The notes under the pieces are model-generated. The model saw only the letters and a list, made by a program, of their open reading frames with translations, was not told where the DNA came from and did no database searches. A stretch of 63,539 nucleotides of DNA, filler included, from Rhabdomonas costata (taxonomy: Eukaryota): NCBI GenBank assembly GCA_019059605.1. It is 29 parts of 29 records of this genome, joined end to end, with 100 filler letters (N's around TTAATTAATTAA, not from the genome) between each part and the next. Parts side by side here need not be neighbours in the genome. Positions count along the whole stretch, not along the records: positions 30,739 to 32,832 come from JAHMHO010005700.1; positions 32,933 to 35,027 come from JAHMHO010005701.1; positions 35,128 to 37,221 come from JAHMHO010005702.1; 26 more parts are not named here. One strand, written 5' to 3'. Below are positions 3,575 through 55,488 of the stretch, one piece after another (positions within the stretch are counted from its first letter, which is position 1; each line of letters starts with the position of its first letter). The position numbers and the translations under genes were made by a program.

Positions 3575-5141
3575 GTATAATGAAGAACTGTGGGGGCTGT
3601 GTCCCACGGTGTTTCTTTGTAGTGTATTGGAGGTGTAGTGAAGACCCCTTCCGGCCCTTCACGTTTAGACTTGCACTCCATAACTCTGCAGGGTCCCGTC
3701 ACTTCACCCGTGAAGGACATTGCCTCTTGCTCCCTCTGCCTGCCTCTAACGTGGTCATGTCAGAGCTGATGTGAGGGTTTTTTGCAGCTGTACAATCATT
3801 GGCATTGTGCATACCGCGTCTGCCGCGCGTTTATTCAAGCTGAGGTGATATCCGGGCACATTTTTTTCTGCTTCTCGCATGCTTCGTGCGACAGGTATGT
3901 CTTCTTTCTCTGGCTTCTTGTCTTCTTCATGATTTTTTGAATTGTGGTGTCGTTGGAGCGCTAAAGAAGTGCACAATGACGATCAATGCATTTAATGTGT
4001 GCTGCGGTGGTTCGATTTTGGAGTGTGAGCAAGATTCCCCCGTGGCATGAGAAGAATTCACAAAAGCATAATGATTGGCCTCCCCGAACATCTTGCTCGC
4101 CAAAAAGGTTGCTCTAGTTTACACACCAAGTTGTTATTCGAAATGCGAGTTTACCCGAAAATTCTAAAGTTAAAGTAAGTGTAAAACAAATGCGGGAAAT
4201 ATGGACCTCAGAAACGTGAATTTCTGACCTGCAACGGTGAAATCATTGCAGGACTCAACTAGCTTTTCCTTTCAATCCTACAACCAAAANNNNNNNNNNN
4301 NNNNNNNNNNNNNNNNNNNNNNNNNNNNNNNNNTTAATTAATTAANNNNNNNNNNNNNNNNNNNNNNNNNNNNNNNNNNNNNNNNNNNNGTGGTGTTTTC
4401 TTTCGCATCCTCTTTTGTTTTGTACACTTTTTGATTTTCCGCTGACACTCTCTCTTCGTGGTCTTATAGGCCTCCTCCGAGCCCGCCACAGGCAGCGGAC
4501 TGGGAGGAGGCCTATAAGACCACGAAGAGAGAGTGTCAGCGGAAAATCAAAAAGTGTACAAAACAAAAGAGGATGCGAAAGACAACACCCCGGCCCACAC
4601 AAAAATGGAGGTAATATTGAAATGAAGAATCAATGGTGAGCTCGAGCGGGGTGACGACAGATCCGTGCCACAAGGGAGGACAGGGAGAACAAGCTGCTCA
4701 TTGTGCACTGCCATACCGTCGTTGTTAAACCACACCGGCGGCCACACGGGCACAAAAGAATTCACCTGCCTGAACGAAGGCTTCAGTCCGCGTTTGGCCC
4801 ATTGATATCATCAATTCTGACAACACTGTCTTGCTGACCGCAGTGCCCTGTGTGTGTGAGTGATTACTTGGCAGCTTACCTCACCGCACTCCGGGGCGTA
4901 CAAAACTGGTATTTCGCCACTGCCAGCAGCGTTCAGTCAAACTTTTGCCATTCCTGTGACAGTCCCTCAGAAAAGCCTCCATCAGCCCAAGGGAAAAAGT
5001 AAATCTACCCAGACACCACGTTTTTCCAATTAAAAGTCGTGTTTCATGGGAAAGACCCCAAAACGTGAAACAGTATAAAGTATTAGTTGCAGTGAAAGCA
5101 GAGTTTCGGACTGAGCCGTACAGCAGGTATATGGAACACGC

Positions 5142-5803
5142 CTCACTGCGCTCTGCGGCGTACATCACTGGTGTCTTCTTCTCCATGTCCACGGCGTTCA
5201 CGTTAGCCTTGCACTGGATCAGCTTTAGAGCGACATCGGGTTGGTTGTTCAGAATAGCATGGGTCAGCGGTGGCCTGCCCTCGTTGTCCACGATGTCGGG
5301 GTTGGCCTTCAGCTCCAGGAGCTTCACTGTGACCTCAGGCATCCCCTTCTCAATGGCGCAGATCACAGGAGTCTTGCCATCCACACCGTCGCAGGTGTCC
5401 AGGTCGACGGGCTCGCCCAGCAGCTTCTCTACTTCCCTCACAGCGCCCTTCTTGATGTGTCCCAAAAGGGCCACCCCGTTGTTCTCCTGCAGCTTCGCCG
5501 TCTCCGTCAGCGCGACCTCCTCCCTGACTTCGGCAAGCTCGTAGACCTAGAGCCCCGACAACACAACCTACCTAATCGTGGTTACTCTTTGAGCAAAGTC
5601 CCGGGCAACTTTTAGTGTGAGAGGAAAGTGGGAGCCATGAAACGGAAATAACATACCCTCCAACCTCACACAGAAAAAATCCCCTCGCACCACACCTCGA
5701 CGTGGTCCAAGCAATACCCCAGCTCCTGCTCAAAGAACTTTTTCGTCGCCGGGCCGAGCCTGCGGTTGACCTTAAAATATGTGTTCATCTCGTAGAGAAC
5801 TTC
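5142..5803 (-). CDS. Ankyrin-repeat protein, exons 5803-5702 and 5546-~5142
   Basis: Ankyrin motifs DGKTPVICAIEKG, EGRPPLTHAILNN and EKKTPVMYAAE. The two exons join in phase 0 (…GYCLDH|VYELAE…). The 3' donor is either GT at 5146 or GC at 5141. Confidence 0.85.
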
Positions 5804-6644
5804 CTGCATACAGGAACAAGGGGAGCGCGTGGGAGAGTGGGGTGCACGGCTGCCGTGTGTCAGCAGGAAAGTTCCAACAAAACAACCTTGATTTTCGATA
5901 ATTTGTCGATCGAATCATTCAGTTCCGTAAGCGCAACGGCAGCACAGGGTACAAGGTACGGTTGGCACTATCAAGTTGCGAATCGCAGTGCGCCTTGATT
6001 TGCTCCAAGTTTAGCAGTTTGCATTCCTCACTACGCACAAACGGCAAGAAAATCCCAGTTCCCCTTCACAGGAACACAGGAAGAGGAGAGGTTGCCAGTT
6101 TGGCACCCCTCTGCAGGTCGCAAAGAACGCCGACCGCTCGAGGGATGTGAACTCCAACCAATATCACATCAGATGAAAACTTTGCAGTGGCACCTTCTGC
6201 GCCAAAACGATGGGCTGCGGGACTTCTGCACCCTGTTGCCCGGCCTATGCCCCTCGCGGCGACCCAAGCACGAGGAGAATTCCGCCATTGCTCTGCTGAA
6301 ACAGGTTCCGTGCACACCCACCGCCTGAGCATTCCCATCTATCGAAGATGAGGGAGACGTGCGGAGGCGTTTGTATGTATCTAAGGTAGTGAGGGATACT
6401 CGTTCTTTGGGCAGGGCGGACAGCGGAGCGATCTCGTGGCCTCGACTCTGACCCTCGGGCAAAGGAATGAGTATCCCCAACCACCNNNNNNNNNNNNNNN
6501 NNNNNNNNNNNNNNNNNNNNNNNNNNNNNTTAATTAATTAANNNNNNNNNNNNNNNNNNNNNNNNNNNNNNNNNNNNNNNNNNNNGTTTTGGGTGCAACT
6601 CATTTCACCTTTCAGCTCAGTACAGTTCTTCAACAGTTGGCAAA

Positions 6645-7823
6645 ATGAGTTGCACCCAAGGCACGGCTGCACCCGCGGGTGCTCGTCCAGAGAATGCACC
6701 GGCCGGAAAGCAGCTTAAGTGCCTGCAGCCCTTCAAGGGTGCAGGCGGGCTGGTGTACCAGAACCGCCTAGGCCTAGCGCCGCTAACCCGAGGTCGCGCC
6801 CACCCGGACACCGGGTGTGTGCGGGACATTCACGTGACATACTACTCGGAGCGGGCCACAGGGGGATTCATCATCAGCGAGGGGACTGGGATCAGCCGGC
6901 AAGGCCTGGGATGGCACTGCGCGCCCGGCATCTACACCAAGGAGCAGGTCGAGAGCTGGAAGCCAGTCACCCAGGCTGTGCACAAGGTGAAGGGGCTGAT
7001 CTTCTGCCAGCTGTGGCACATGGGCCGTGCTGGGCACTCCGACGTGTTTGGGTCGCAGCCCGTGGCCCCTTCCGCGATCGGCTTGAGCGGGGAGTGCACC
7101 GCGAAGAACGGCGAGAAGAAGCCCTATGAGGTCCCCCATGCCCTGACCGTGGAAGAGATCAAGCAGACCGTCCAGGACTATGCCACCTCAGCGAAAAATG
7201 CGCTAGCTGCGGGGTTTGACGGGGTTCAGGTGCACTCGGCAAATGGCTATCTTCCGGACCAGTTCCTCCAGAGCTGCTCGAACAAGCGCGAGGATGCGTA
7301 CGGGGGCTCCATCGAGAACCGCTTGCGCTTCCTGAAGGAAGTCCTGGAGGCGGTGTGCGCGGCGGTCGGCAAGGAGCGAGTCTGGGTGCGATTTTCACCG
7401 AACGGGGACTTCAACGGGATGGGGTGCGAGGACAACCTGGAAACCTTTGACGCAGCCATCCGCCTGGCGGCCACGATGAAGGTCGGGTGCGTGGAGGTTT
7501 TGGACGGTCTGGCCTTCGGTTTTCACAAGAAGACGGAGCCATACACCATTGAGCGGGTGCGGAAGGTGGTGAAGGAGGGCAACCCGGAAGGAACGACGGC
7601 GGTGTGCGGCAACTGCGGTTACACCCTGGAGACGGCGGAGAAGGCGATCGCGGATGGTCTGGCTGACCTGATCTCCTTCGGGCGCCCGTACATGTCCAAC
7701 CCGGACCTGCCCGAGCGCTTCCGAGACGGTGTTGAACTCGCACCTGTTCCGGAGTATCCCGACTGGTGGAACAAGCGGGACGGCGACGGGTACATCACAT
7801 TCCCGAAGGCGAAGAAGCCGTAG
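6645..7823 (+). CDS. Old yellow enzyme / NADH:flavin oxidoreductase (OPR/NemA-like alkene reductase), complete and intronless
   Basis: 392-aa ORF from ATG to TAG with the classical OYE motifs NRLGLAPLTRGRA, YYSERA..GFIISEG, QLWHMGR, GFDGVQVHSANGYL.DQF, YGGSIENRLRF, DLISFGR.YMSNPDLPER and GYITFP. Confidence 0.96.
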   Translation: MSCTQGTAAPAGARPENAPAGKQLKCLQPFKGAGGLVYQNRLGLAPLTRGRAHPDTGCVRDIHVTYYSERATGGFIISEGTGISRQGLGWHCAPGIYTKEQVESWKPVTQAVHKVKGLIFCQLWHMGRAGHSDVFGSQPVAPSAIGLSGECTAKNGEKKPYEVPHALTVEEIKQTVQDYATSAKNALAAGFDGVQVHSANGYLPDQFLQSCSNKREDAYGGSIENRLRFLKEVLEAVCAAVGKERVWVRFSPNGDFNGMGCEDNLETFDAAIRLAATMKVGCVEVLDGLAFGFHKKTEPYTIERVRKVVKEGNPEGTTAVCGNCGYTLETAEKAIADGLADLISFGRPYMSNPDLPERFRDGVELAPVPEYPDWWNKRDGDGYITFPKAKKP

Positions 7824-9638: not shown

Positions 9639-10390
9639 GTTGATTCTTTTGCCGACTTTTTTGTTGGCTTTTCCTCATTGCGCAATGATTGAGGCTGCGG
9701 CCAACCTCACAAGACGTTATTACGCTGGCCGTTTGCATACATGCTTCCTCGTTGTGAGGGAGTCCTGATGCAGCACCCATCTATCCTCCTCGGCGGCCTC
9801 TGGACCTGCACCAATCGTCAGGGTCGCTCCGAAAATGAGGGGGGGGGGTATGGCCACTTTCTTCGGCTCAAATCTTTACCCGATTATCTAGGTGTCTTCC
9901 CGCTTGGGCTCCCTGGGACCTGCCCTGTGATGGGTATCATAACTTGAGCTGCACTGGCCGGTTGAGTTTACTGGCAGGTTCGCAGCCTCAGGCAGCATCC
10001 CACCCAGTCATGCATCTTGCAGGCTCCAATTTGGGGGTTTTTTAGGTCCTTTTTGACTTGGCCGCATTTTTTAGGGTGTGTGTGTGTGTGCCCTTTTTGC
10101 AACGTAGCAGGCCTGTGTACTGAGCCTAAGCTTTCCGCCGGGCCTGCATAGCATGCTTAAGGGAACCCATTCATGGTGGCGGGACCGGCGTGGACCGGAA
10201 TGGTTGTGCTTAGATCTGTTCCCACAGGCCTTTTGGGGCTACTTTCACTGTTGGTGGCCTGGTGATCGTGGGGTAATCACGTAAATTGGCACACCGCTAT
10301 CTCCCCAAGTTTGCCAACAGCTGATTTGTCTGTTGGTCTCGGTTTGTCACAGTCACAGGCTCTCTCTCTCCTTTCTTGGCGGGGGACAGC

Positions 10391-10603
10391 GTATTGCGTT
10401 TCTTCCTACCAATAACCGATTGGTCACGATGCCCAAACGATGCCCAAGACGATTTCCTCGATGCCCGGCACGATGCCCGTTATTTTTGACGATGCCCAGC
10501 ATTGCCTAAAGGGTTACAAATAACTAGACCTTATATTAATGCTAGGCATCGTCAAAATAAGGGCAACGTGGTGGGCATCGTACAAAATGCGTTGGGCATC
10601 GTG
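10391..10603. mobile_element. Dispersed palindromic repeat with CGATGCCC motifs (MITE-like), copy 1
   Basis: Closely similar to 15880-16080 on another contig. Five CGATGCCC motifs on the left and four inverted GGGCATCG-like motifs on the right. Confidence 0.75.
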
Positions 10604-11304
10604 TATAATGAGCTCGGTACCTTGCGAAAACAGGCCTCGCCCATCACACGAACGTGAAAAACCAACATTTACGCCACTGAAAGGCCTTCTGTCACGTTAA
10701 AACTTGCCCCTGAAACCTATAATACAGCGTATCTAAGCTGAAAAGCCGCAAAAAGCCTCAAAACCCAGCACCCAGGAAAAAAGTGCATTATTGCATCCAA
10801 AAATAACTACCCATACCTCAGTAGAGTGCTTTCTCTGGGGTCTAGAGCGTACATTTTGAAGTGTGTTACCACAAACANNNNNNNNNNNNNNNNNNNNNNN
10901 NNNNNNNNNNNNNNNNNNNNNTTAATTAATTAANNNNNNNNNNNNNNNNNNNNNNNNNNNNNNNNNNNNNNNNNNNNGCTGTGTTGCGAGGTTTTTTGTG
11001 GCATATGAGGGCACACAATGGACCATGTAATACGCTGAAAGTTGTGACAGCCCAGAAAGTCCGAAATGCGCCACATTCCAGTTTTTAAGCTCAAAAACAG
11101 ATCGATGTCAGATCGATGGACTGACCTCGGGAGTGGAGAGGTGCCTCCCTTCCTCGTCTCGAGATCAACAACATACGTCTGCGGAAATCTGCATTGTGCA
11201 TTCTGTTTGAGTTTGACTCTGTAAAGTGCCTAAAGTTCTTTTTTCTCACGCGAGCCTTGGCTCCCTGACAATTACCTCGACAACATCACCCTCAGCACTC
11301 CTAC

Positions 11305-32611: not shown

Positions 32612-33177
32612 CTGCAATAAAACATCCCAATAGCCGAACTTCTCGAGAACAACAACCAAGATGTGAGACTGCGTGGAGCATGGAGCCACCGGGATAGGTG
32701 TGGGGAGTATGCACAAAGTAAATCACCGCAAGGGATCCAGAGAGGGGTTGGTGGTCAATACAGACAGGACATACTCTAAAGGCTTAAGACTTCTGACGTC
32801 ATAGAAAGGCCGCCTCCTTTGCTCCAAAAACCNNNNNNNNNNNNNNNNNNNNNNNNNNNNNNNNNNNNNNNNNNNNTTAATTAATTAANNNNNNNNNNNN
32901 NNNNNNNNNNNNNNNNNNNNNNNNNNNNNNNNCTTGCGACAGTTGAAAAAGTGCTGAAGTTGTCTACTGTTTCATACAATATTATTCAGCATGAAACTCG
33001 CAAGTTGTTGGAGGAAACACAAGAAAAACTCGTCACCACTCCAGAAAGATCCTAAAGAGGAACTTTATAAGGAAAATCCCACAGAGAAAGCTCCTGACGA
33101 AGAATATCCTGACGAGGAAGATCCTGATGAGGAAGATTCTGCAGAGGAACTTCATGAGGAATACGATGTAATATCAC

Positions 33178-33591
33178 ATGAATGATAATCAGTTATATAC
33201 AATTAATCTTGACACAAGACATGTAGATTATGGTAATAAAATCAATTCAATCATCAATCAATAATTAAATCAACGTATATTAGCATTAAGTAAAACATCA
33301 CCGTTGTATGTATTTTTTTACATAAAAAAGAGTAATTATCTTATATTAATTGTTGATGATATTAATCCTAAAATAGCTGATTCAATAAGAGAAAAATTTC
33401 ATAAGATTGAAATATTTTTAGAACGAGAATTTATGTTAAATATTGTTGATCATGTACTTGTACCTCAACATATTCTATTATCAGATAAAGAAAGCCAACA
33501 AATAATGAAAGAATATAACATAATATATGAGACGTCGTATCATTCTTTGTCCTTTATATTTCTGAAAATAACAGAACATGTTAGATGTTAA
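33178..33591 (+). pseudogene. RPB5: Decayed RNA polymerase subunit Rpb5, giant-virus (Mimiviridae)-like
   Basis: Frame from 33178: MNDNQLYTINLD…NQ*LNQRILALSKTSPLYVFF…LILIVDDINPK…IEIFLEREFMLNIVDHVLVPQHILLSDKESQQIMKEYNI. Rpb5 signature N+..H.LVP.H..L. In-frame TAA at 33262-33264; the C-terminal LP.I...DP motif is missing. Very AT-rich and intronless. Confidence 0.82.
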
Positions 33592-33600
33592 GCAGATCTA

Positions 33601-33633
33601 AGACTTAATAAAAGCACGTTTTTATTAACGTCT
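33601..33633. terminator. AT-rich hairpin downstream of the Rpb5 remnant
   Basis: agac-ttaataaaa…ttttattaa-c-gtct forms a stem-loop, consistent with the mimivirus hairpin termination rule. Confidence 0.4.
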
Positions 33634-33767
33634 ACATCTTTATTCTATATCTTTAATAGCATTTATATCTTTCTTCATCGTTTTATAAAGACGAAGTATT
33701 AGTTCTCTTCTATAGAAGTTTACTAACTACTTGTGTATGTATGTATATTTGTCATTTACATTTTATA

Positions 33768-33775
33768 AAAATTGA
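33768..33775 (+). promoter_or_regulatory. AAAATTGA motif (Mimiviridae early-promoter consensus)
   Basis: Exact octamer in AT-rich intergenic DNA ~160 bp upstream of the ATG at 33938. Confidence 0.45.
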
Positions 33776-33937
33776 AAATGTTTTTGTTTGTCTTGACCCA
33801 TTAAGTCTAAACTAATCACCTTACGACGATCTAAGGATCTAAGAAGATCTCCGTCTTCTTTCCCTGTCTTTCGCTTAGCTTTTATCACAATACAACGAAG
33901 ATCCACTTACTTCGCGCCTGCCATCACTATCCCAACC

Positions 33938-34314
33938 ATGACGGTCACCATGACCGCAACTGCTGTGGAAACTCGCAAGAATTACCTCGTAGGTGTCTGC
34001 CGTTGTGGAACCACGACTTCGAACGGCAAAGGCTTTTGTCGCGATTGCTTTGACAAAGTACAGTCTCCGAAATGCGGAAAGGACAAAAGAGTACCCCGCG
34101 CACAGTGGCACGTGTTAATTGCACATTAAAGCGCCGACAATATGCGACATCTGTGCATGCCAGGGAAGCGCATACGCGCTTCTTGCTCGCGCATACTGAA
34201 GAAGAGCGACTGGCTTGTTTGGAACAAATTTCCGCAAAAATGGCGGAAGTCAATCAGCTGAGCCGTCGATTGTTGCGCCGTCGGAGCCAGCTTGAAGACG
34301 AACAGTCGTCGTAA
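33938..34314 (+). pseudogene. Frameshifted small Cys-rich/helical ORF (CRC..8..CRDC)
   Basis: ORFs 33938-34129 and 34072-34314 join into one ~125-aa frame if a single T is restored at ~34126 (…VLIAH/LKRRQYATS…). Confidence 0.5.
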
Positions 34315-34370
34315 GGTCGATTCGGTGCAAGCCATCTTCCTCTCTCGTCTTCCTTCCTTCGTTGTCTCTC

Positions 34371-34853
34371 TAGACGATCTTCTTGCTTTGCCTCTTCCCC
34401 TTCCCTTAGAAGCTTTGCTACTTGACATTATATACGTACGTACACTTCTACTGTATTGTGTTTCTGTTCGTTAAAAATATTTAATGAACAAAAACATATT
34501 TATTGACCACAACAAAGACACATAACGTTTTCGCTTTGATTACTTCTACTCTGTATTTAAATGTATATTTTTCCATTTCATATCATCCACATTTGCAACG
34601 TTTACCTTTTTATATACAGAAGTATCACATTCTTGTTCATGTGAAAAAAACAAGATCTATAATTGGCTGTTCTCTACTTGCTTCATCGCAAGTTCAGAAC
34701 CGCCACTTGAACAAAGACGGATCTTTGGTTCCTTCTTCCTCCATTCTCTTCCTTCTGCCTTTTAGACGCTTTACTACTTGACTATATACGTACGTACGCT
34801 GCTACTGCATTGTGTTTTCGCTCATCAAAAACATTAAATGAATAAAAACATAT
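34371..34853. repeat. Diverged direct repeat pair (~34371-34499 and ~34713-34853)
   Basis: Shared core: ttaga.gcttt.ctacttgac…tatacgtacgtac.ct.ctactg.attgtgttt…aaaa.a.t.aatgaa.aaaaacatat. Confidence 0.8.
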
Positions 34854-35155
34854 GTATGTATAGAATATCATATATACTTTATAAAACTCCTGAAACAACA
34901 GGAAACTCCTGAAAAACAGAGACGACAACAAATCGAGGGGCAAAATGTAACCCATGTGAATTCCGCCTTTTTTTTCATTGAAAATCTCCAAAATGGACAA
35001 TAATTCTGTATCTCGTTACCCCCCACCNNNNNNNNNNNNNNNNNNNNNNNNNNNNNNNNNNNNNNNNNNNNTTAATTAATTAANNNNNNNNNNNNNNNNN
35101 NNNNNNNNNNNNNNNNNNNNNNNNNNNTGTTTGGGCGCCTCAAGGGCAGGAGGCC

Positions 35156-35951: not shown

Positions 35952-38900
35952 TTCGGCTCGCGTTTAGAGCTCTAATGTTTGGAGCACGGAACTGTCAAAT
36001 AATTAGGGTGAACAGGAACTGCCCCTCGAAACCGTTTTTTCGGAAGCTCCCCTGTGCGCGGGATTCGCCAGACCAGGCAGTGCTGCAACTTCCGCTCACA
36101 GATGCATGTTAATAATGGCACAGGCCAACACAAACCCGCACTTCGAACATTCTACTCCATTAATGTTGAAACCCCGACCCGCGGTACACCTCGGATGACT
36201 CACTTACCGGCACTTCCTCTCTCCATGAGAAGAAACAAAAGGGGAGGGAGGGGGGGCCGAAAGAAAAGATCGGACGCCCCCGTCACATCTCAAGTGCAAA
36301 TGTGTGCTAAAATTATGTGCTAAAGTATTTCGTGAAAAGAAAAGAATAGCCTCTTACCTCGGCACTTACGACGGCTTGAGCAGCAAGTACCACGGCCCAG
36401 CTGCAGAGCGCCCTGCTCAAGATGCGCGCTGACGTGCCATACTGACCACATCTTCTCACACGGATTAGAGCTGATGCGAAGCACAAAGACAAACTCAAAA
36501 CAAAGGGTCCCGGAAGTCGATCAGGCCTCCCCAAAGAAGCAGCTTGGACTGCTCGTTCCCCAATATCCGTTAATAGGCACTTGTATGTGGGTGAAAAGTT
36601 GAGTTAAACGACAGAAATACTTTTTTTTTGCTTTACCATTTTACAACAACAGATCAACACCTGAGCTGGGTGAATGGCACCATAATTCTGGCCTACCCTC
36701 TTCTTTTTCCCTCCCTTATTCTAAGAAAAGGCAAAGAATGGTGGTGGCAGATCACTCGCCACCATATTTGCAGTGGTCGAAAAGTACGCCTCCCTGAAAG
36801 TCCACCCCACTCCACTCCCGCCTTCCTTGAAGCACGTCGAAGGGCAAAGCTTGCACTTCAACCCAGCATACAGAGTTGGAGCAAGAGTAGGAGGGACCAG
36901 AATGCCGTGAGCTGATTTCAAAAAATCATAATGTTCACACGCATCGAAATGAAAAAAGGACGCCTCAAAATCGATACAAGAGACGAGGTTTCCAAATGTC
37001 TTCCAAGCCATGGGCTCGAAGGACTCCCGCAATCATACACGCAGAAAACAAAAACGAAATCCCAAGAGAATTGGCTTCCTTCCTCACCCTTGCTCCAACT
37101 CTGTATGCTGGGTCGAAGGGCAAAGCTTGCACTTCAACCCAGCATACAGAGTTGGAGCAAGAGTAGGAGGGACCAGAATGCCGTGAGCTGATTTCAAAAA
37201 ATCATAATGTTCACACACAACNNNNNNNNNNNNNNNNNNNNNNNNNNNNNNNNNNNNNNNNNNNNTTAATTAATTAANNNNNNNNNNNNNNNNNNNNNNN
37301 NNNNNNNNNNNNNNNNNNNNNTGTGTGGGTAAACAACGGGGAATCAGAGAATAAATTTTCAAAATGATAAGTTTTGTCACGTTCTCGACTTGGGTGTGGT
37401 GCTGGATGCGTGGCCAGTAGCAGTTGAGAATTTTGGAGTAGAAGCTGAAAACTGCTGCCGTAAAAAAAACGCCTGCGGCTTGGCTATGAGCTTGTGTAAA
37501 AGAAAAGCATCAGAGTTGGTCTAAGCGATGGCATTGCCGCGTGTTGGCATGTGTTTATGTCATACAATTGCGCCAATAATTGGCAATGAAATTGCAAGTT
37601 GGAAACAACCGCCGTGCCAGCTGATCGGTGTTTGTATAATGTTACCAGCTACAGCCTTTATGTTTGGAAAAACGTAGTAGAAGTAGAGCACTGGGTTTGG
37701 TGCCACATGTCGCGGCCAGGTTTGCAGCCTCACGACTTATGCTTCACCAGGCGTATAACTCTGGCTTCACTGGTCTCGTTGTTCAGCAGTATCACTACTA
37801 TGCACTTACATTGTGTGTCAACACGACCTTGCGTCCGATAGCAGGAGTACAAGCTAAGAATTGGAAGTGGTTACGAGCTTTGCAAGGAAACCTGGTGACT
37901 TAACTTCTGCGGGAGCGCTGCCGCGATCTCTGCGTATTCAGCGTGGCTTTTCTGGTGCAGCTTTTGATTGGAATTACGCAAAAGTACAGCCAGAAGCAAA
38001 AGTACATCCACACCGCAGTTCACCACAAAAGCGGCAACAGCTGCATTAAAAAACTATACCACACTCTGAATTTTGAGCCGGCATTTCCGTCTCCAAAATT
38101 TGCCACATTCAACCTTAATAACAAAAAGACAAAGTAATAAAAACTGGTCCAAAAAACGTTCAAAAACCATCCTTCAATAAATTCGATTTTCAGTGCTATT
38201 TTCCAAACCTGCGTCATGCAACGTGCCTTCGTGGCTTTCAACTTTCTTCTTTTCGTTTTTAATTGGAGCTAATTTAGTACTTTGGCGGCATTCTTGTTTC
38301 CTCGGCTCCGCCTTGGACTCCCGCTGTCCCTCTGCTCTTCAATCTCTGAGTTTCGATCCTGTGATGTAGCCGCTGGCCGGTGCTTCGCGGCCTGAACCAG
38401 CACCCTGTCTGCTTCTACTCGTTCCGTTGCATGTCTTGCCTTCCGTTGTGGTTCCATGGCTCCACACGCAATCATTTTTGAAAAATGCCCGCCACTGCTT
38501 GTCCTCTAAGCTCACAGCTTAAAGCGGAGTTCTCAAGCCATGTTCTTAGCGTTTTTTTCAGCGCTCTACAGCGCTTGCATTTCCAACGCTCACCTGCTGC
38601 GCACTTTTCTCCTCTCAGATGTCAAATTCTTAGATGGTCTTATGTGTATTTTCGGCAGTTTTACAACGTCAACGCTTATGCTCACAACTTGAGAATAATT
38701 GCTAAATTCAGATTCAGATTCAGAGTTAATTTTTCATATTTCATTTGCCTTTCTTAAACGCATGCTCTTATGATTCTGTTCTGCTGCCGTTTTTCACCTT
38801 CAGCGCTTCTGCTCCCAAATGGAAATTCCTCTAAACGCTCTCACAGTATCTGCAAAAGCTCAGATCTGTGGTGGTCAGCAAGTGCAACAGTTGCTTTCTA

Positions 38901-39878
38901 CAAAACCACTGATCCTGTAGGGAAACACATGAAATAAACTCTACCGCCCATTTGTCATTCTAAACAAAATTGACGTCACAAACATCTTTTGTTTTCAAAC
39001 GCAAGACATGTATTAAGCCGTTACACTTTCCTTGATGTGGCGTAGAAGTATTCCACACGGAGAGGCCTCTCCTTCTGTTCACTCAATAAAAACGTATAAC
39101 ACAATGCAAGTATCAATTGCTGCCACAGCACTACTGTATTAATAACAAAGCAATAGGAGAGGTGCAACGTGGTACGCTGCAAAACCAAAAGTTACAAAAC
39201 AATGCTATTAATTTTTGATACATTTCACAAAATAATGTCTCCGACTTCACCAGAAGAAACTGAAACTGAAAAAACACAAAATTCATATCCAAAGGTGTTC
39301 TGCAACAAACAAACAGTATAATGATTAGCGAAAATATGGGAAGGTGAAACAAGAAGATTTGTTTCATTTTGGCAGCGTAAAGTGAAGCACTGCAGATAAT
39401 GACACCAACCCCCACNNNNNNNNNNNNNNNNNNNNNNNNNNNNNNNNNNNNNNNNNNNNTTAATTAATTAANNNNNNNNNNNNNNNNNNNNNNNNNNNNN
39501 NNNNNNNNNNNNNNNGAGAGAAAAGTAACTTCAATGGGATGCGGTTGAACGAATGAGGGGGAAGAAAGAAAGTTGGAGGCAGGAGCGACGTTATTGTGAA
39601 AAACGGCGTGCGTGCTTGTAAGTGTAGAATATGTTTAGAAGAAGATGTTTAGAGGCAGGTTTCCTTTTCGTACGGCTTTCACCTCACCTAAGAAAAGCAG
39701 AATACTTCAGGGTACCAAACCTGCAGAGTGAAAACGCAGGAATGTCATATCGAAAGAAAGGCAGTTCGGTTTTCTGCATTGCTCGCAGTTCTATAAAGTT
39801 CTAACATCGTGCTTCCAGTAAGACAAACCGTGCTTAAATCGGGGGGAGAAAGCGGCAAAGGGGATGTGAGCAGTGTGG

Positions 39879-49755: not shown

Positions 49756-51949
49756 TTTGAAGAGAGAACGGCTGTGCGTGTGCTGCAATCCTACATAGTC
49801 TCTGTTCCGCCTCCCTTCCCTTTGGAAGACGGAGGCGGTGTACTTTACCTTTCGTTTACACGGGACACTTTTCACCTTACGGGTTCGCGGTGTCCCGGGG
49901 ACTTTGCTGAAGAGCGACGGGATTATTTTCGGGCCTGAAGCCGCCGTGGGCCGAACGTTGTTTCCAACCAACAAGAAAAGGCGCCTGACGGGTTGCCCTG
50001 GTGGCGATGTACGTCGAAATGAAGCATGCACACTGAACCACTGAATCGGCCCCCTTGGTTTATTTTGTCCTTCACCGTAAAGCGGCGTTTTACCGTTTAA
50101 CCAGTGGGGGGGTAGGACAGGGGAAGGGGTCGGAGAAAAGAGGTCATAATGACTGTGAGGGATGGTTAGATTCTGAGAAATTTTCAGAATTCAGGATGGT
50201 CCGAACGAAAAAATGTTGACGTGTCGGTGAGTTGCGACCCTTTTTGGAATGAAGGTTTCTTCGAAAACTCCCGTCGACTGTAAAGCGCCGAATGCACCGG
50301 GGCGCAGCCTCGTTTGTAACACAGGCACCCCAGGGCAAGCGCGGCCTCCTGGAAAGCGCTGGAAACATTTCACACACACNNNNNNNNNNNNNNNNNNNNN
50401 NNNNNNNNNNNNNNNNNNNNNNNTTAATTAATTAANNNNNNNNNNNNNNNNNNNNNNNNNNNNNNNNNNNNNNNNNNNNGTGGTTGTGGTTTGTGTTGGT
50501 TGCCTTCGTTGTGTTCTGGGTTCCTTTGCTAGTAGTATCAACTCATGCCTTTTACTCTATGCGTATTCTGCGCATGATTTTGTGCGTGATTGCGGGTACA
50601 TAGAGATTCCACAATCACAGACTACACTACTGTGAGAATGCCAGCTAATTTCACAGAATACGCATAGAGTAAAAGGCATGAGTTGATACTACTACGCATA
50701 TGAGCCCAGATACAGAAAGCTTCAAACACAAATGTGGGAATACTGCGAAGTGGAGGTCGCCTAGACCGACACCTCTAGTAAATGGAACCCAGAAGTACAA
50801 TACCATAATGAGAGATCCAGACCACAATTCCTCCAGCCAACCTACACATCACCAGGTACCAATCAGAGTGTTGTGTTGGAGTGGCGGCAAATACGTGTGG
50901 TGCCTGTACTCTGAAACCCCAACATTATACACTACTCATGCTACTCTTTCGCTACGCTACTGAACAAACAAGTTACATAAAAATCCGATAAATACAGATA
51001 TTTGTAGGGAAGAAACGTGCATAGGATAGGGACTTTTTCCAAGAGCCGATCCGCAGGAAAACATTGAAATCTATGTTTTCTTGTTTTGTGATTCCACTTG
51101 ATTATTACTAATCTTGCAAATGATGGTTTAATCCAACCCGAGCAAGCTCCAAACCATAGCAGAACACAAAAATGTAGATTCCATTACATAATTGCGCCAA
51201 AACTCTAAGATTCAGTATACAATACCATTAATAACAGCAAATCTGGTTCATACAGAGTGGCCTTGTCGTTTCTGTATATAACATACATTTCAGCAATGGC
51301 CACAAAAAGGCAAAGTGTAATTGGGCTTTATGGAGCTGGTGGTGTGACAAGCGCACCTTTGCTTTAAATCGCTTTCCTTTGAATGCTACGTATATAACCA
51401 CGTTTCAGGTGTTTTTTTGTTTGAACCACCACAACAAAATCTTAAGAATTCATCGCCAAAACAATCCTCTGTTCACAGGTCGTGCGAATAAAATTGTGGT
51501 ACATATGTGATGGATTTGAAGTAGAAGATAAGTGAAATTAAAAATCTAAATTACACAGAAAATGGCTATAAATTATAGGCTGGTTTTGGGATACTGATTT
51601 TGAATACGGTGGTGGACAGTTCGGTGCTCACTGGAGTTTCCTCTGGACGACACACAATCCTTGGCACACACTTAGATTGTTGGTACCTCAGTAAACGGCT
51701 CAGAACGTAGTGGAATGAATGAGCACGAACAAATATGTATAAAACAGAGGTGAAATACGCGTTTGGTCTGCTGCCATGATAATTAGTACCACGATAACAA
51801 TTCACAAGCGTATTTAATTTGCTCCAAAGCACAAACAAAAACGTTCCCACCACTTAAAAAAATCACAAAAGCCAGCCATTAAGTACATATCACTTCAGGA
51901 GATCCGAAACCGCGGCGCCTTGCATCTACATGCGGAAATTACCTTAAAA

Positions 51950-52233
51950 CAGACCACTGATGGCATTCCGCAAAAGAGTTGCGATGTTTATGTGCCACTG
52001 CTGCTTCAAAAGGACCGCTGCTGTGTGGCCATTTATACATTCTGCTCTGTGGTAAGCATTGACTCCATATAAAGGATATGAATATTGAACGCCGTATCAT
52101 GGATAGTGGTGCAAAAAGTGGGGTTCATTGACTTAACAACGGTTTTTACTTTCAGAAGATTTGACACAGCGGAGCTCTGGTCACATGCAGCGGCGTAGTG
52201 GAGTGTGATCGCATTAAATTTGTTTATCCTCAA
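51950..52233 (-). pseudogene. Decayed ankyrin-repeat sequence
   Basis: ITLHYAAACDQSSAVSNLL, TTIHDTAFNIH and NGHTA remnants with stops and frameshifts in AT-rich DNA. Confidence 0.45.
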
Positions 52234-52672
52234 ATTTTGTTCTTAAATACAACGCCAAGACCAAACATTTACCGGAATTTTCACGCAAATCAACAGTAGA
52301 AACCCAAAACATCTTGTATTTACACAAAACGCCACTACTCTATACTTCAAAAACGTCCTCTGTAACATCGAAGCAATAGACCATGGCGCATTTTGATAGT
52401 GTACCAAATATGAAAACATGAATATATTCAAATATGAATATAGCATTGGTTTGATAAAATTGGAGAAGTGTAAACGTTTCAAAAATTTGTTCCTCATTGT
52501 GATTTATTAAACTGTTTCGTCGTAGATTTGGTTTAGGCTTGTTTTAAGTTTATGACATTGTGACTGCTGTTTNNNNNNNNNNNNNNNNNNNNNNNNNNNN
52601 NNNNNNNNNNNNNNNNTTAATTAATTAANNNNNNNNNNNNNNNNNNNNNNNNNNNNNNNNNNNNNNNNNNNN

Positions 52673-54359
52673 AGATACCCTGCGGTGCTGTACAGGGGCT
52701 CCGCATTAGGGGCCTGGGAGTCGCAGTCCGTGCCCGAAACCACGCGGGCCACATCCAGACCTACCCCAGGCTGCAGCCCAGGCCCGCTGAAGGTAAACGT
52801 CTGGTTCGTGCAGCCAGCCTGAGGGAGAGAGAGAATGCAAACACAGGCAATTGTCCTTCCCGCCTTGAAACGAACGCCGTCCTTCTCGCCGTGAAAGCGT
52901 TTGGAGATCGGCCGAGTATTTTCAGGCTCTTCCTGGTCTCCTTTGAAATATGTTGAAATGTAAATGAACTACGATGGAAAACCAGATGTGGATATCAACG
53001 GAAAACCAACAACTCGGAAAGAAAAAGCAGGAAGCGTTGGTGCAAGCACAAGGGGTGCAAGCACAAGCAGCGTGTAAGGGTAGACTCAAAGGGTCGCTGT
53101 CCCCCAACACCGTGAACCATGGCTGGTCCATGACCGCATACCACATTTTTAGTTCCTCTGTTCTTGGACTGTCTCCTATTGATGGATGGATGGTTTATCT
53201 CGGGTGCCAAGGCCAGACGCGGTGCGGGGGGAACCACCCCTCCCATCTTGCACCCACAACCCAGCATTGGTTCGTTTTGCTGCGTCAGTACCTTTTATTC
53301 CGAAAACTGTTGTGTCACGTTCGCGATCCATCGTTAACGGAGGAGGGAGGGGGTCGAGTTCAAGAATGTGCCCGCAGCCCGCAGAAAGGAGGGCAGGGAC
53401 GTGAAACCAATGGTTTCCACATACCACTAGCGTAGTATTCCAACTGTACCCCGAGGGCCCACAGACGTTCAGCAAGGACATCGCCACGAAGCCTCCTCCG
53501 GCCGCCTTGTAGCACACCACGAAGGTTCCCCCTCTCTGGAAGGTGGTGTTGTACCGCGCGGAAGTTCCCCCGCTGCCGAAGAGAAAGTTGGTGTTCCCGC
53601 TCTGCAGGGTCTCAGGGATGCTAGCGGAGCAGTTCCAGACCCCACCCGCCGACAGGGGGACGATCCGGACCTGATCCCAATTGGGACCCGTCACCAGAGC
53701 ATTCCCGGTGAAGTTCAGGACGACCGGGATCCCCGTGGGCACGCATGAGGCGTTGGTCCGTAGCGGGGTGCTGAAGTTGGTGGAGTTCGGCCCGGTGACG
53801 TTCAGCGCCGGAAGCTGCACCGTGCTGCAGTTGGCCGCGGTGTAGCACACGGAGAGCGAGGGGAAGCCGAGTAGGAAGGTCGTCTGGATGGTCGCCATGG
53901 TGCCCCCGTTGGAGACGGTGACTGTCTGGGGAACCGGAGCCAGCTGGGGGATCACCACGTATGGCTTGACGTAGCAGCTGTTGCCGTAGATGATGTCGAT
54001 GTGGTCGGAGGCCTGCAGGCCTGTGCCCAGGACGGTCACGGTAACGGGAACGCCGGTGGGCGGGGGGTTTGGGCTGGCGGTGTAGTTCGCCGCGCCGACC
54101 AGCACAAGAACCGGGGAGACCGCAACAAAGCCCCCTCCGACGATCTGGTAGCACACCCCGTAGATCCCACCCTGGGTCACGGTAGTGTTATAGACCGTGC
54201 GGGAGGCGTTGGTGCGGTCGGGCTGGAGGTTACTGCGGAAGTTGCTGGAGTTGGTGCCAGGGGCGCTCGTGAAGGCGCCCTGGGCTATCTTCATGCAGCT
54301 GCTGGGGTCGGCGACCAGATACACGGTGTCCCCCAAGGGCCCAGAGGAAAGCCCCAGGC
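52673..54359 (-). CDS. Large extracellular protein with ~105-aa Ig-like repeats, exons 54359-53428 and 52818-52673
   Basis: Recurrent unit G.GL….D.V.(L/I)V….C…T.…G.(Y/F).VCY….GG.F; many N-x-S/T sites; phase-0 GT-AG join. Confidence 0.82.
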
Positions 54360-55488
54360 CTAAACAGGAGCGGAGTGGGACAGGGAACAGTCCGGCATTC
54401 CTACCAAACCGACTCTTTGGTCCAAATTGCAGCACATTCAGGAGTTCTTGCGAATGAAGCTGTCCAGCCAAGGGCAGCAGGAAGTTGAAGACTTTCTACT
54501 TTGACTTTGGGAAAGTTGTGTCTGTTTTCCAACGGGTGGCACTGCACAGAAGCAAAGACGTGGGTTGCAATACAAAAGCAAAGCAAGAAGATATACAATG
54601 CTTGCTTACCTTCATTCCTGCACCGCATCCTAATTTTGCGATCTTCCTTCCGAACAGGGGTGCACAAACAGATGTCCGTTGTGGTACATCGCCTGCTAAA
54701 GTTAGAGCGGCAGTACGTGAGAGAGCTTCCCATGAGAGACCAACCACACAGAGGGGGGGGGGGGGNNNNNNNNNNNNNNNNNNNNNNNNNNNNNNNNNNN
54801 NNNNNNNNNTTAATTAATTAANNNNNNNNNNNNNNNNNNNNNNNNNNNNNNNNNNNNNNNNNNNNCCTGGGCTTCCTGGGCACGGGCAGGGGCTGGCGTG
54901 CGCGCCTGCCTCGGGGCTGTCGATGTTTGTGAACCTGAACGCGACGGTGTGCAACGACACGGTGAACTTCCCTGGGAGCAACTGCAAGTGTGCTGTGCAT
55001 TTCGGTTTGCCTTGGTGTTGTCCCTCTGTAATCTTCTGTATTCCTGTTTAATGCTAATGTCGCCGAGGTGTAGATGAGCCCGCTTTGCCGTCTTTTTGAG
55101 AGAGTAGTGCTCCTTTTTTCCTTTCGGAACACAGTGCGAGGTTTTATTCGCTGCCGAAATGCAGAGGCGAATAATTGCAAGTATGCTATTTCTGCAGATA
55201 GCAAAGGCTACCTCAGCCATATTAAAGCAGGTGCCCCAGCATATTTGCGAAAGCATTCCGTAAACATTGATTCTCGTTGCTGTCTGCGACAGTCTGCGTG
55301 GTTGCGTCTTTTTTCGGGTTTGCCCTGATTATCGAGATGCAGAGGAAAATCCTGCTTTTCGTCAGAGAGCAGAGCTGCTGTCGCTGTGTGAGTAGTGCAG
55401 TTAGAAATTAGAAAGAATGGGGGTTGTGGATGTGTTTTTTATTCTGCTTTCGGCGTTGCTCTGGAGCTGTTCATCTCCTGGATCGCAG

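Follow-up and report, generated by a model that had tools for sequence, protein, structure and literature searches.

A candidate giant-virus Rpb5 remnant on an AT-rich contig of the Rhabdomonas costata genome assembly

Footprints that nucleocytoplasmic large DNA viruses (NCLDVs) have left in eukaryotic genomes are well documented, and the genome assembly of Rhabdomonas costata (GCA_019059605.1) raises the question of whether one of its short contigs, at positions 32933-35027 of the stretch analysed here, preserves such a footprint in the form of a broken gene for the RNA polymerase subunit Rpb5. Rpb5 is also known as RPABC1, and its archaeal counterpart is RpoH. The whole stretch of DNA that was analysed, referred to as the window, comprises 63,539 bases and consists of 29 length-sorted contigs of 2091-2098 bp joined by 28 N-run spacers around TTAATTAATTAA; it does not represent one locus, and features are not readable across the TTAATTAATTAA spacers. 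An earlier note on this DNA had proposed an endogenous, mimivirus-like (Mimiviridae/Klosneuvirinae) fragment in a probable euglenid genome. The reading favoured here, with belief and doubt evenly balanced, is that positions 33178-33522 are an eroded endogenous giant-virus (Nucleocytoviricota) relic in a eukaryotic genome. Its most secure component is the assignment of the Rpb5 piece to a giant-virus type, and its less secure component is the putative integration of that piece into the genome of the same organism as the other contigs.

An interrupted and truncated Rpb5 gene

Pfam, phmmer, tree and profile analyses agree that the plus strand at 33178-33522 holds an internal fragment of what appears to be a giant-virus-type Rpb5 gene, with 115 codons at 22.3% GC corresponding to positions ~53-164 of a protein of ~210 residues. 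When the frame is read through its stop, residues 88-116 match PF01191 (RNA_pol_Rpb5_C) with 29.1 bits, above the gathering cut-off of 23.5; the match covers profile positions 2-30 of 73, leaving part of the C-terminal domain in an interrupted frame rather than a complete domain in an open one. No match of the fragment to the Pfam family RNA_pol_Rpb5_N was found at E<=1. Comparison with 1.84 billion representative proteins by phmmer yielded 168 matches at E<=1e-3, 18 of them at E<=1e-10, and the best relative (E 5.8e-17, 42% identity) aligned query residues 2-116 with residues 53-164 of a 210-residue protein. The top matches are metagenome proteins of ~210 residues, rich in K, N and I. A word-indexed protein search with the fragment returned no match, and neither did tblastn of the fragment against a phage collection.

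Translation of 33178-33591 encounters a single in-frame TAA. Within the 115-codon frame this one stop compares with a mean of 11.3 in shuffled sequences, none of 2000 shuffles having one stop or fewer, and the two other plus-strand frames across the piece contain 13 and 18 stops. A stop count so far below that of the shuffles indicates that the frame is real coding sequence and not a product of chance. In addition, all six invariant columns of a 26-row alignment of relatives (A1) that fall within the span of the fragment are retained.

The TAA occupies fragment codon 29 (33262-33264, plus strand) and stands in an alignment column where the relatives have a hydrophobic residue (F/I/L/V). Its position bears on a reading in which the piece is neither viral nor broken, being instead a cellular Rpb5 exon of an AT-rich eukaryote, for example a ciliate in which TAA encodes Gln. 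Such an exon would be in keeping with a frame that is open under translation table 6, and the two truncations could then be exon boundaries. However, the column is hydrophobic rather than polar, Gln is otherwise encoded in the piece by CAA or CAG (six codons), and no Rpb5 C-terminus follows downstream in any frame. The first two of these features agree better with mutation of a hydrophobic codon to a stop than with a ciliate-type code.

Compared with its full-length relatives, the fragment lacks ~52 N-terminal and ~45 C-terminal residues, and the C-terminal loss takes away most of the conserved domain at that end. When a profile built from 66 full-length relatives was run over the contig in all six frames, with stops treated as X, the lost C-terminus was nowhere to be found, and the other profile matches on the contig had negative scores only. 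A candidate inverted copy of the missing end at 33655-33770 on the minus strand belongs to these negative-scoring matches and was rejected as noise. Since the N-terminal helices and most of the C-terminal domain are gone and a stop interrupts the remainder, the fragment would be unable to make a working subunit and probably has no function of its own. The internal stop and the lost C-terminus reported in the earlier note are thus both borne out, and the N-terminal loss, absent from that note, can be added to them. Its mention of several disablements holds in so far as the piece is disabled; the damage amounts to one point disablement, the TAA, together with two truncations, in a frame that is otherwise well kept.

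Viral and cellular relatives

Relatives of the fragment in viral genomes were sought in IMG/VR with an alignment of six phmmer matches (A2), which recovered 17 loci (L001-L017) at 32-54% identity, several of them named GVMAG and residing on contigs of up to 481 kb. Scans of IMG/VR using the fragment, the top phmmer match P0002 or the match P0004 singly found nothing, and a metagenome scan with an alignment of the nearest sub-clade (A3) found no relative. The DNA around the 17 matches has 20-30% GC. The NCLDV major capsid family PF04451 was found in two of the three records searched, which account for three of five named loci; each of the two contains seven matches, and one of them is a 1.3-Mb giant-virus bin. 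Locus L001 encodes, besides Rpb5, an Rpb6, a type IA topoisomerase and a protein kinase. These capsid matches and the gene content of L001 identify the reference contigs as those of true giant viruses.

Two features of the reference contigs may be recorded in their own right. In L001 the Rpb6 and Rpb5 genes (4156-4842 and 9998-10660) lie ~5 kb apart, with the type IA topoisomerase and protein kinase genes in between. In the record of L005 (G001), the seven PF04451 matches fall within ~28 kb of a 168-kb viral contig (C1:10187-38107), an unusually dense cluster of capsid paralogues.

An Atlas search placed the top match P0002 nearest to clusters labelled Nucleocytoviricota Rpb5, with scores of 0.95-0.96; the same resource, searched with the 86 residues that follow the stop, gave meaningless matches only (0.76). 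Among the best 150 of the 168 phmmer matches, most align over their full length to IMG/VR proteins at ~32-66% identity, and one does so at 99%. From these best 150, 21 rows were set apart as cellular-like, most of them because they align only partly to the viral set and a few on account of weak alignment or a composition that is not AT-rich. The label was checked directly on two of the 21 (P0134 and P0149), which align end to end with solved Rpb5 of plants and animals at 161-189 bits, and was extended to the other 19 by inference.

The tree comprised 88 rows and 114 kept columns under the fragment, with X at the stop of the query. Besides the query, its rows were 15 distinct IMG/VR proteins (the 17 minus two duplicates), the 21 cellular-like proteins and those 51 of the matches P0002-P0060 that have at least 180 aa; seven shorter matches, and every match from P0061 onwards outside the cellular-like list, were left out. 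In the careful tree, all 21 cellular-like rows fall on one side of a branch supported by an ultrafast bootstrap (UFboot) value of 98, a Shimodaira-Hasegawa-like approximate likelihood-ratio (SH-aLRT) value of 30 and all of 200 bootstrap trees. Opposite to them, the query falls together with all 15 IMG/VR rows, its nearest neighbours being P0002, P0007, P0008 and P0004, and a quick tree gives the same placement of the query. The viral affinity advanced in the earlier note agrees with the side of the tree on which the translated piece falls, although the approximately unbiased (AU) test stops short of formally rejecting (p 0.0595) the alternative in which the query joins the cellular-like rows, an arrangement with a log-likelihood lower by 39.35.

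Profile scores, which provide an independent check, point in the same direction. A profile built from 66 viral-type rows gives the fragment 108.0 bits and one built from 19 cellular-like rows gives it 64.3 bits, and the difference of +43.7 bits lies inside the leave-one-out range of viral-type proteins (24.9 to 92.2) and outside that of cellular-like ones (-91.5 to -25.3). The cellular-like leave-one-out set includes AT-rich rows such as P0147, whose scores are clearly cellular. The discrimination comes mainly from the N-domain part, with 67.6 bits on the viral-type profile versus 14.9 on the cellular-like one, in accordance with the earlier impression that the N-terminal half looks more like viral than cellular Rpb5, whereas the short C-domain part barely discriminates (59.9 versus 51.0 bits). 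Like cellular Rpb5, as represented by solved chains from Pol I, II and III structures (for example 7eu0_E and 29tk_E), the fragment includes the linker and the start of the C-domain; the best score among these chains is 32.8 bits, their alignment does not begin before about residue 55 (residues ~55-119), and the N-domain part sets the fragment apart from them. The profile of relatives scores 43.6 bits, a weak match, against the RPB5 homolog of African swine fever virus, versus 127 bits against plant Rpb5.

On the strength of the tree placement and the profile difference, the Rpb5 piece is, as judged from its sequence, of the giant-virus type and not cellular, with the qualification that the AU test leaves the cellular placement at p 0.0595. 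That near-rejection is also a point in favour of the cellular exon described above. Set against it, the profile difference favours the viral type while the AT-rich P0147 still scores as cellular, and the query falls on the viral side of the careful tree; taken with the position of the TAA, the Gln codons and the missing C-terminus, these observations make the cellular exon a highly improbable explanation.

The same comparisons show where the fragment departs from known giant-virus Rpb5. It shares with the IMG/VR genes the family PF01191 and the N-domain type, with 41% tblastx identity over 85 residues to L001 and L002. Those genes, however, are complete, encode ~200-260 aa and sit on contigs of 20-30% GC (L004 being read through a stop near its end), whereas the fragment covers only positions ~53-164, contains one nonsense codon and is without viral neighbours.

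A relic, a chimera or foreign DNA

The contig at 32933-35027 (2095 bp), bounded by N runs and TTAATTAATTAA spacers, is a composition mosaic. Its overall GC content of 36.3% is the lowest among the 29 contigs, the other 28 ranging from 39.7 to 58.4% with a pooled value of 51.6%, and its earlier description as AT-rich is correct in this sense. The contig is not uniform, however: GC amounts to 40% in the 5' flank (32933-33177), 22% across the Rpb5 piece (33178-33522), 27% in the following block (33523-33830), 50% in the next 600 bp (33831-34430) and 32-36% in the remainder. The AT-rich block as a whole (33178-33830, ~650 bp) is bordered by DNA of 40-52% GC that does not look viral. GC exceeds 25% in every one of the 2184 windows of 150 bp taken from the other 28 contigs. 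Under a third-order Markov model trained on those 28 contigs, which is a weak test because the model is near uniform, the AT-rich block scores -2.054 and -2.055, below the minimum of -2.038 for the other contigs, while four of the five remaining segments, with -1.963 to -1.981, fall inside the range of those contigs, and the fifth (600 bp, GC-rich) has a score of -1.998, slightly below their 5th percentile of -1.994. Judged by GC content and by this weak Markov score, the flanks of the AT-rich block fall into the range of the other contigs or at its margin.

The composition changes sharply at 33178, exactly where the viral-type piece and the strong Rpb5 similarity begin. The statement in the earlier note that no host junction is visible is therefore too strong, as this step constitutes a candidate junction. 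The coincidence also suits a different explanation, in which an assembly or library chimera joined unrelated DNA to ~350-650 bp that came either from a free giant virus or from a contaminant of the sample infected with a virus, so that the truncations would be artefacts and the TAA either a sequencing error or real. A chimera of this kind would be consistent with a frame that is otherwise intact (1 stop versus 11.3 expected), with a highly fragmented assembly of ~2.1-kb contigs and with a contig that has no sequence in common with the others. The other end of the similarity is harder to accommodate. The Rpb5 similarity stops at 33522 inside AT-rich sequence and without a change in composition, and it is followed by 300 bp of AT-rich DNA in which each frame has 6-12 stops and the Rpb5 C-terminus is missing. 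Such an ending calls for a second breakpoint, which a simple two-piece chimera does not supply, and the in-frame TAA would need a separate explanation. The chimera is accordingly considered somewhat unlikely, though deserving of serious attention.

With one limit of similarity at the composition step and the other inside the AT-rich block, at least two breakpoints are required, and rearranged, eroded viral DNA in a eukaryotic genome fits this arrangement better than a two-piece chimera. Under this favoured interpretation, giant-virus DNA would first have entered a eukaryotic genome, rearrangement or deletion would then have cut the Rpb5 gene at both ends, and one hydrophobic codon would have mutated to TAA, this order of events being conjectural. 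The loss of function would presumably be recent in terms of point mutation, because the remaining frame is almost free of stops.

Several considerations weigh against a relic. The link of the viral piece to its flanks, and to the organism of the other contigs, is putative, and a frame this well kept would also suit the chimeric join of a read from a live virus. The compositional argument is limited by the Markov test, whose host model is close to uniform. Comparison of the contig with the other 28 contigs by blastn gave nothing better than E 0.1. The viral content consists of a single gene fragment: when the contig is compared with the 17 viral loci by tblastx, 33235-33522 is the only stretch to match, low-complexity noise aside, and the rest of the contig has no match to these loci and no Pfam family above cut-off. 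To these points may be added the near-significant AU result and the small number of cellular-like rows whose label was checked.

A further explanation is that the whole contig derives from a different organism, for instance a eukaryotic contaminant of the sample whose genes are GC-rich and whose spacers are AT-rich, and which would itself bear the relic. The relic would then be real but would lie outside the genome for which the window is taken to stand. The lowest GC content of the 29 contigs would accord with a foreign source, as would an AT-rich stretch beyond the viral block (34431-34730, 32% GC), the lack of blastn similarity to the other contigs and a local repeat of ~125 nt that is absent from the rest of the window. 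On the other hand, the weak test described above gives the flanks scores that fall inside the spread of the other contigs or at its lower limit, and 58.6 kb is too small a genome sample for shared repeats to be expected. Foreign origin of the contig is regarded as improbable, and the putative integration is tentatively placed in the organism that contributed the other contigs. Two other contigs of low GC content (37322-39415 and 50480-52572) were considered as further viral pieces and rejected, as they are without long open reading frames (ORFs) and contain nothing viral.

Among known systems, the closest comparison is provided by Euglena gracilis, for which a recent report describes giant endogenous viral elements (GEVEs), eight in number, of 86-311 kb with 25-37% GC in a genome of ~51% GC, eroded by transposons and duplications, carrying many hallmark genes and placed in Asfuvirales (PMC12455990). 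The present contig resembles these elements in showing low-GC viral sequence with signs of erosion against a background of ~51% GC: its 36.3% GC falls within their range, and the pooled 51.6% of the other contigs is close to the value for the E. gracilis genome (PMC12455990). The scale is quite different, as the E. gracilis elements described there span 86-311 kb with many hallmark genes (PMC12455990), whereas only one 345-bp fragment with putative integration is present here. Fossils of NCLDVs in plant and fungal genomes are described in two other reports (PMC4083422, PMC7017919).

Instead of the several NCLDV hallmark genes in a contiguous region by which a GEVE would be recognised, the 2.1-kb contig offers one gene fragment. 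Taken alone, this 345-bp dead fragment would have no function and opens no new question, and it is of a kind of feature already known. If integrated, it would be one further trace, in the genome of a protist, of an earlier infection by a giant virus and may hint at a viral lineage different from that in Euglena. The narrower proposal that a mimivirus-like giant virus (Imitervirales-type) left it as a true relic in the genome of a euglenid is improbable. A literature search brought up no account of euglenids carrying a mimivirus-type element, and to our knowledge Bodo saltans virus is the only known discoban giant virus. Were the proposal true, euglenids would have been infected by relatives of Bodo saltans virus, and a second viral lineage would join the Asfuvirales-type GEVEs reported from E. 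gracilis in 2025. In practical terms, the fragment serves as a flag for giant-virus markers on AT-rich contigs, and for contamination, in the full assembly.

Other features of the contig and of the window

Upstream of the Rpb5 piece, the segment at 33019-33177 (plus strand, 40% GC) continues in the same frame, with an in-frame TAA at 33169-33171, and shows weak similarity to the N-terminal helices of Rpb5. It encodes a peptide rich in R, K, I and L, whose addition raises the profile score by 6.7 bits, a gain equalled by 7 of 300 shuffles; the peptide alone scores 8.2 bits, equalled by 3 of 1000 shuffles, and the reversed peptide still scores 5.5 bits. An N-terminal remnant is accordingly only weakly suggested here, and the signal appears to be driven by composition. 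An ORF scan also finds a 64-aa acidic ORF (32991-33185) that encloses this segment in another frame. Both take in a degenerate tandem repeat found by repeat scan at 33043-33161 (40% GC), which has a unit of ~15 nt and five copies in register at 63-81% identity, and which encodes an acidic, PDEE-rich peptide in one frame and an RKIL-rich peptide in the Rpb5 frame.

Immediately after the abrupt end of the Rpb5 similarity, 33523-33830 forms an AT-rich non-coding block (26.6% GC) in which the stops noted above are counted over 102 codons per frame; no Pfam match there reaches its family cut-off. Further downstream, in the segment of ~50% GC, two overlapping plus-strand ORFs in different frames, of 63 aa (33938-34129) and 80 aa (34072-34314), correspond to what the earlier note had taken for a second, frameshifted ORF; neither frame has a significant family match. 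The 63-aa ORF contains a CxC...CxxC motif and has DZR as its best Pfam match, with 14.7 bits against a cut-off of 27.3, and the 80-aa ORF has no family match above cut-off. A search with 34072-34311 found no relatives of the 80-aa ORF.

A direct repeat of ~125 nt was detected by repeat scan and blastn on the plus strand, with copy 1 at 34380-34505, immediately 3' of the 80-aa ORF, and copy 2 at 34730-34860. The copies are ~80% identical (98 nt at 83.7%), each passing from a pyrimidine-rich tract through TATATACGTACGTAC into an AT-rich tail, and may stem from duplication of a 3' region or belong to a small repeat element.

The motif AAAATTGA, which we take to be the mimivirus early-promoter motif, was considered as a promoter signal and rejected, as it occurs once in the contig and three times in the window, versus 4.0 occurrences expected. 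Scans for bacterial-type promoters and terminators were set aside as irrelevant to a eukaryote or a giant virus; the terminator scan found six terminator-like hairpins in 32933-35027 versus 0.9 expected from shuffles, an excess that is probably a by-product of the mosaic composition. An Rfam scan of the window gave no match.

Elsewhere in the window, a contig of 58% GC carries an intron-free ORF of 411 aa (6588-7820, plus strand) for an NADH:flavin oxidoreductase of the old yellow enzyme family (PF00724, 252.6 bits), and an ORF with ankyrin repeats (Ank_2, 53.6 bits) lies at 4884-5546 on the minus strand. An open frame of 439 aa at 53179-54495 (minus strand), rich in N-x-S/T, internally repetitive and matching no Pfam family, may encode a protein that the main organism secretes or carries on its surface.

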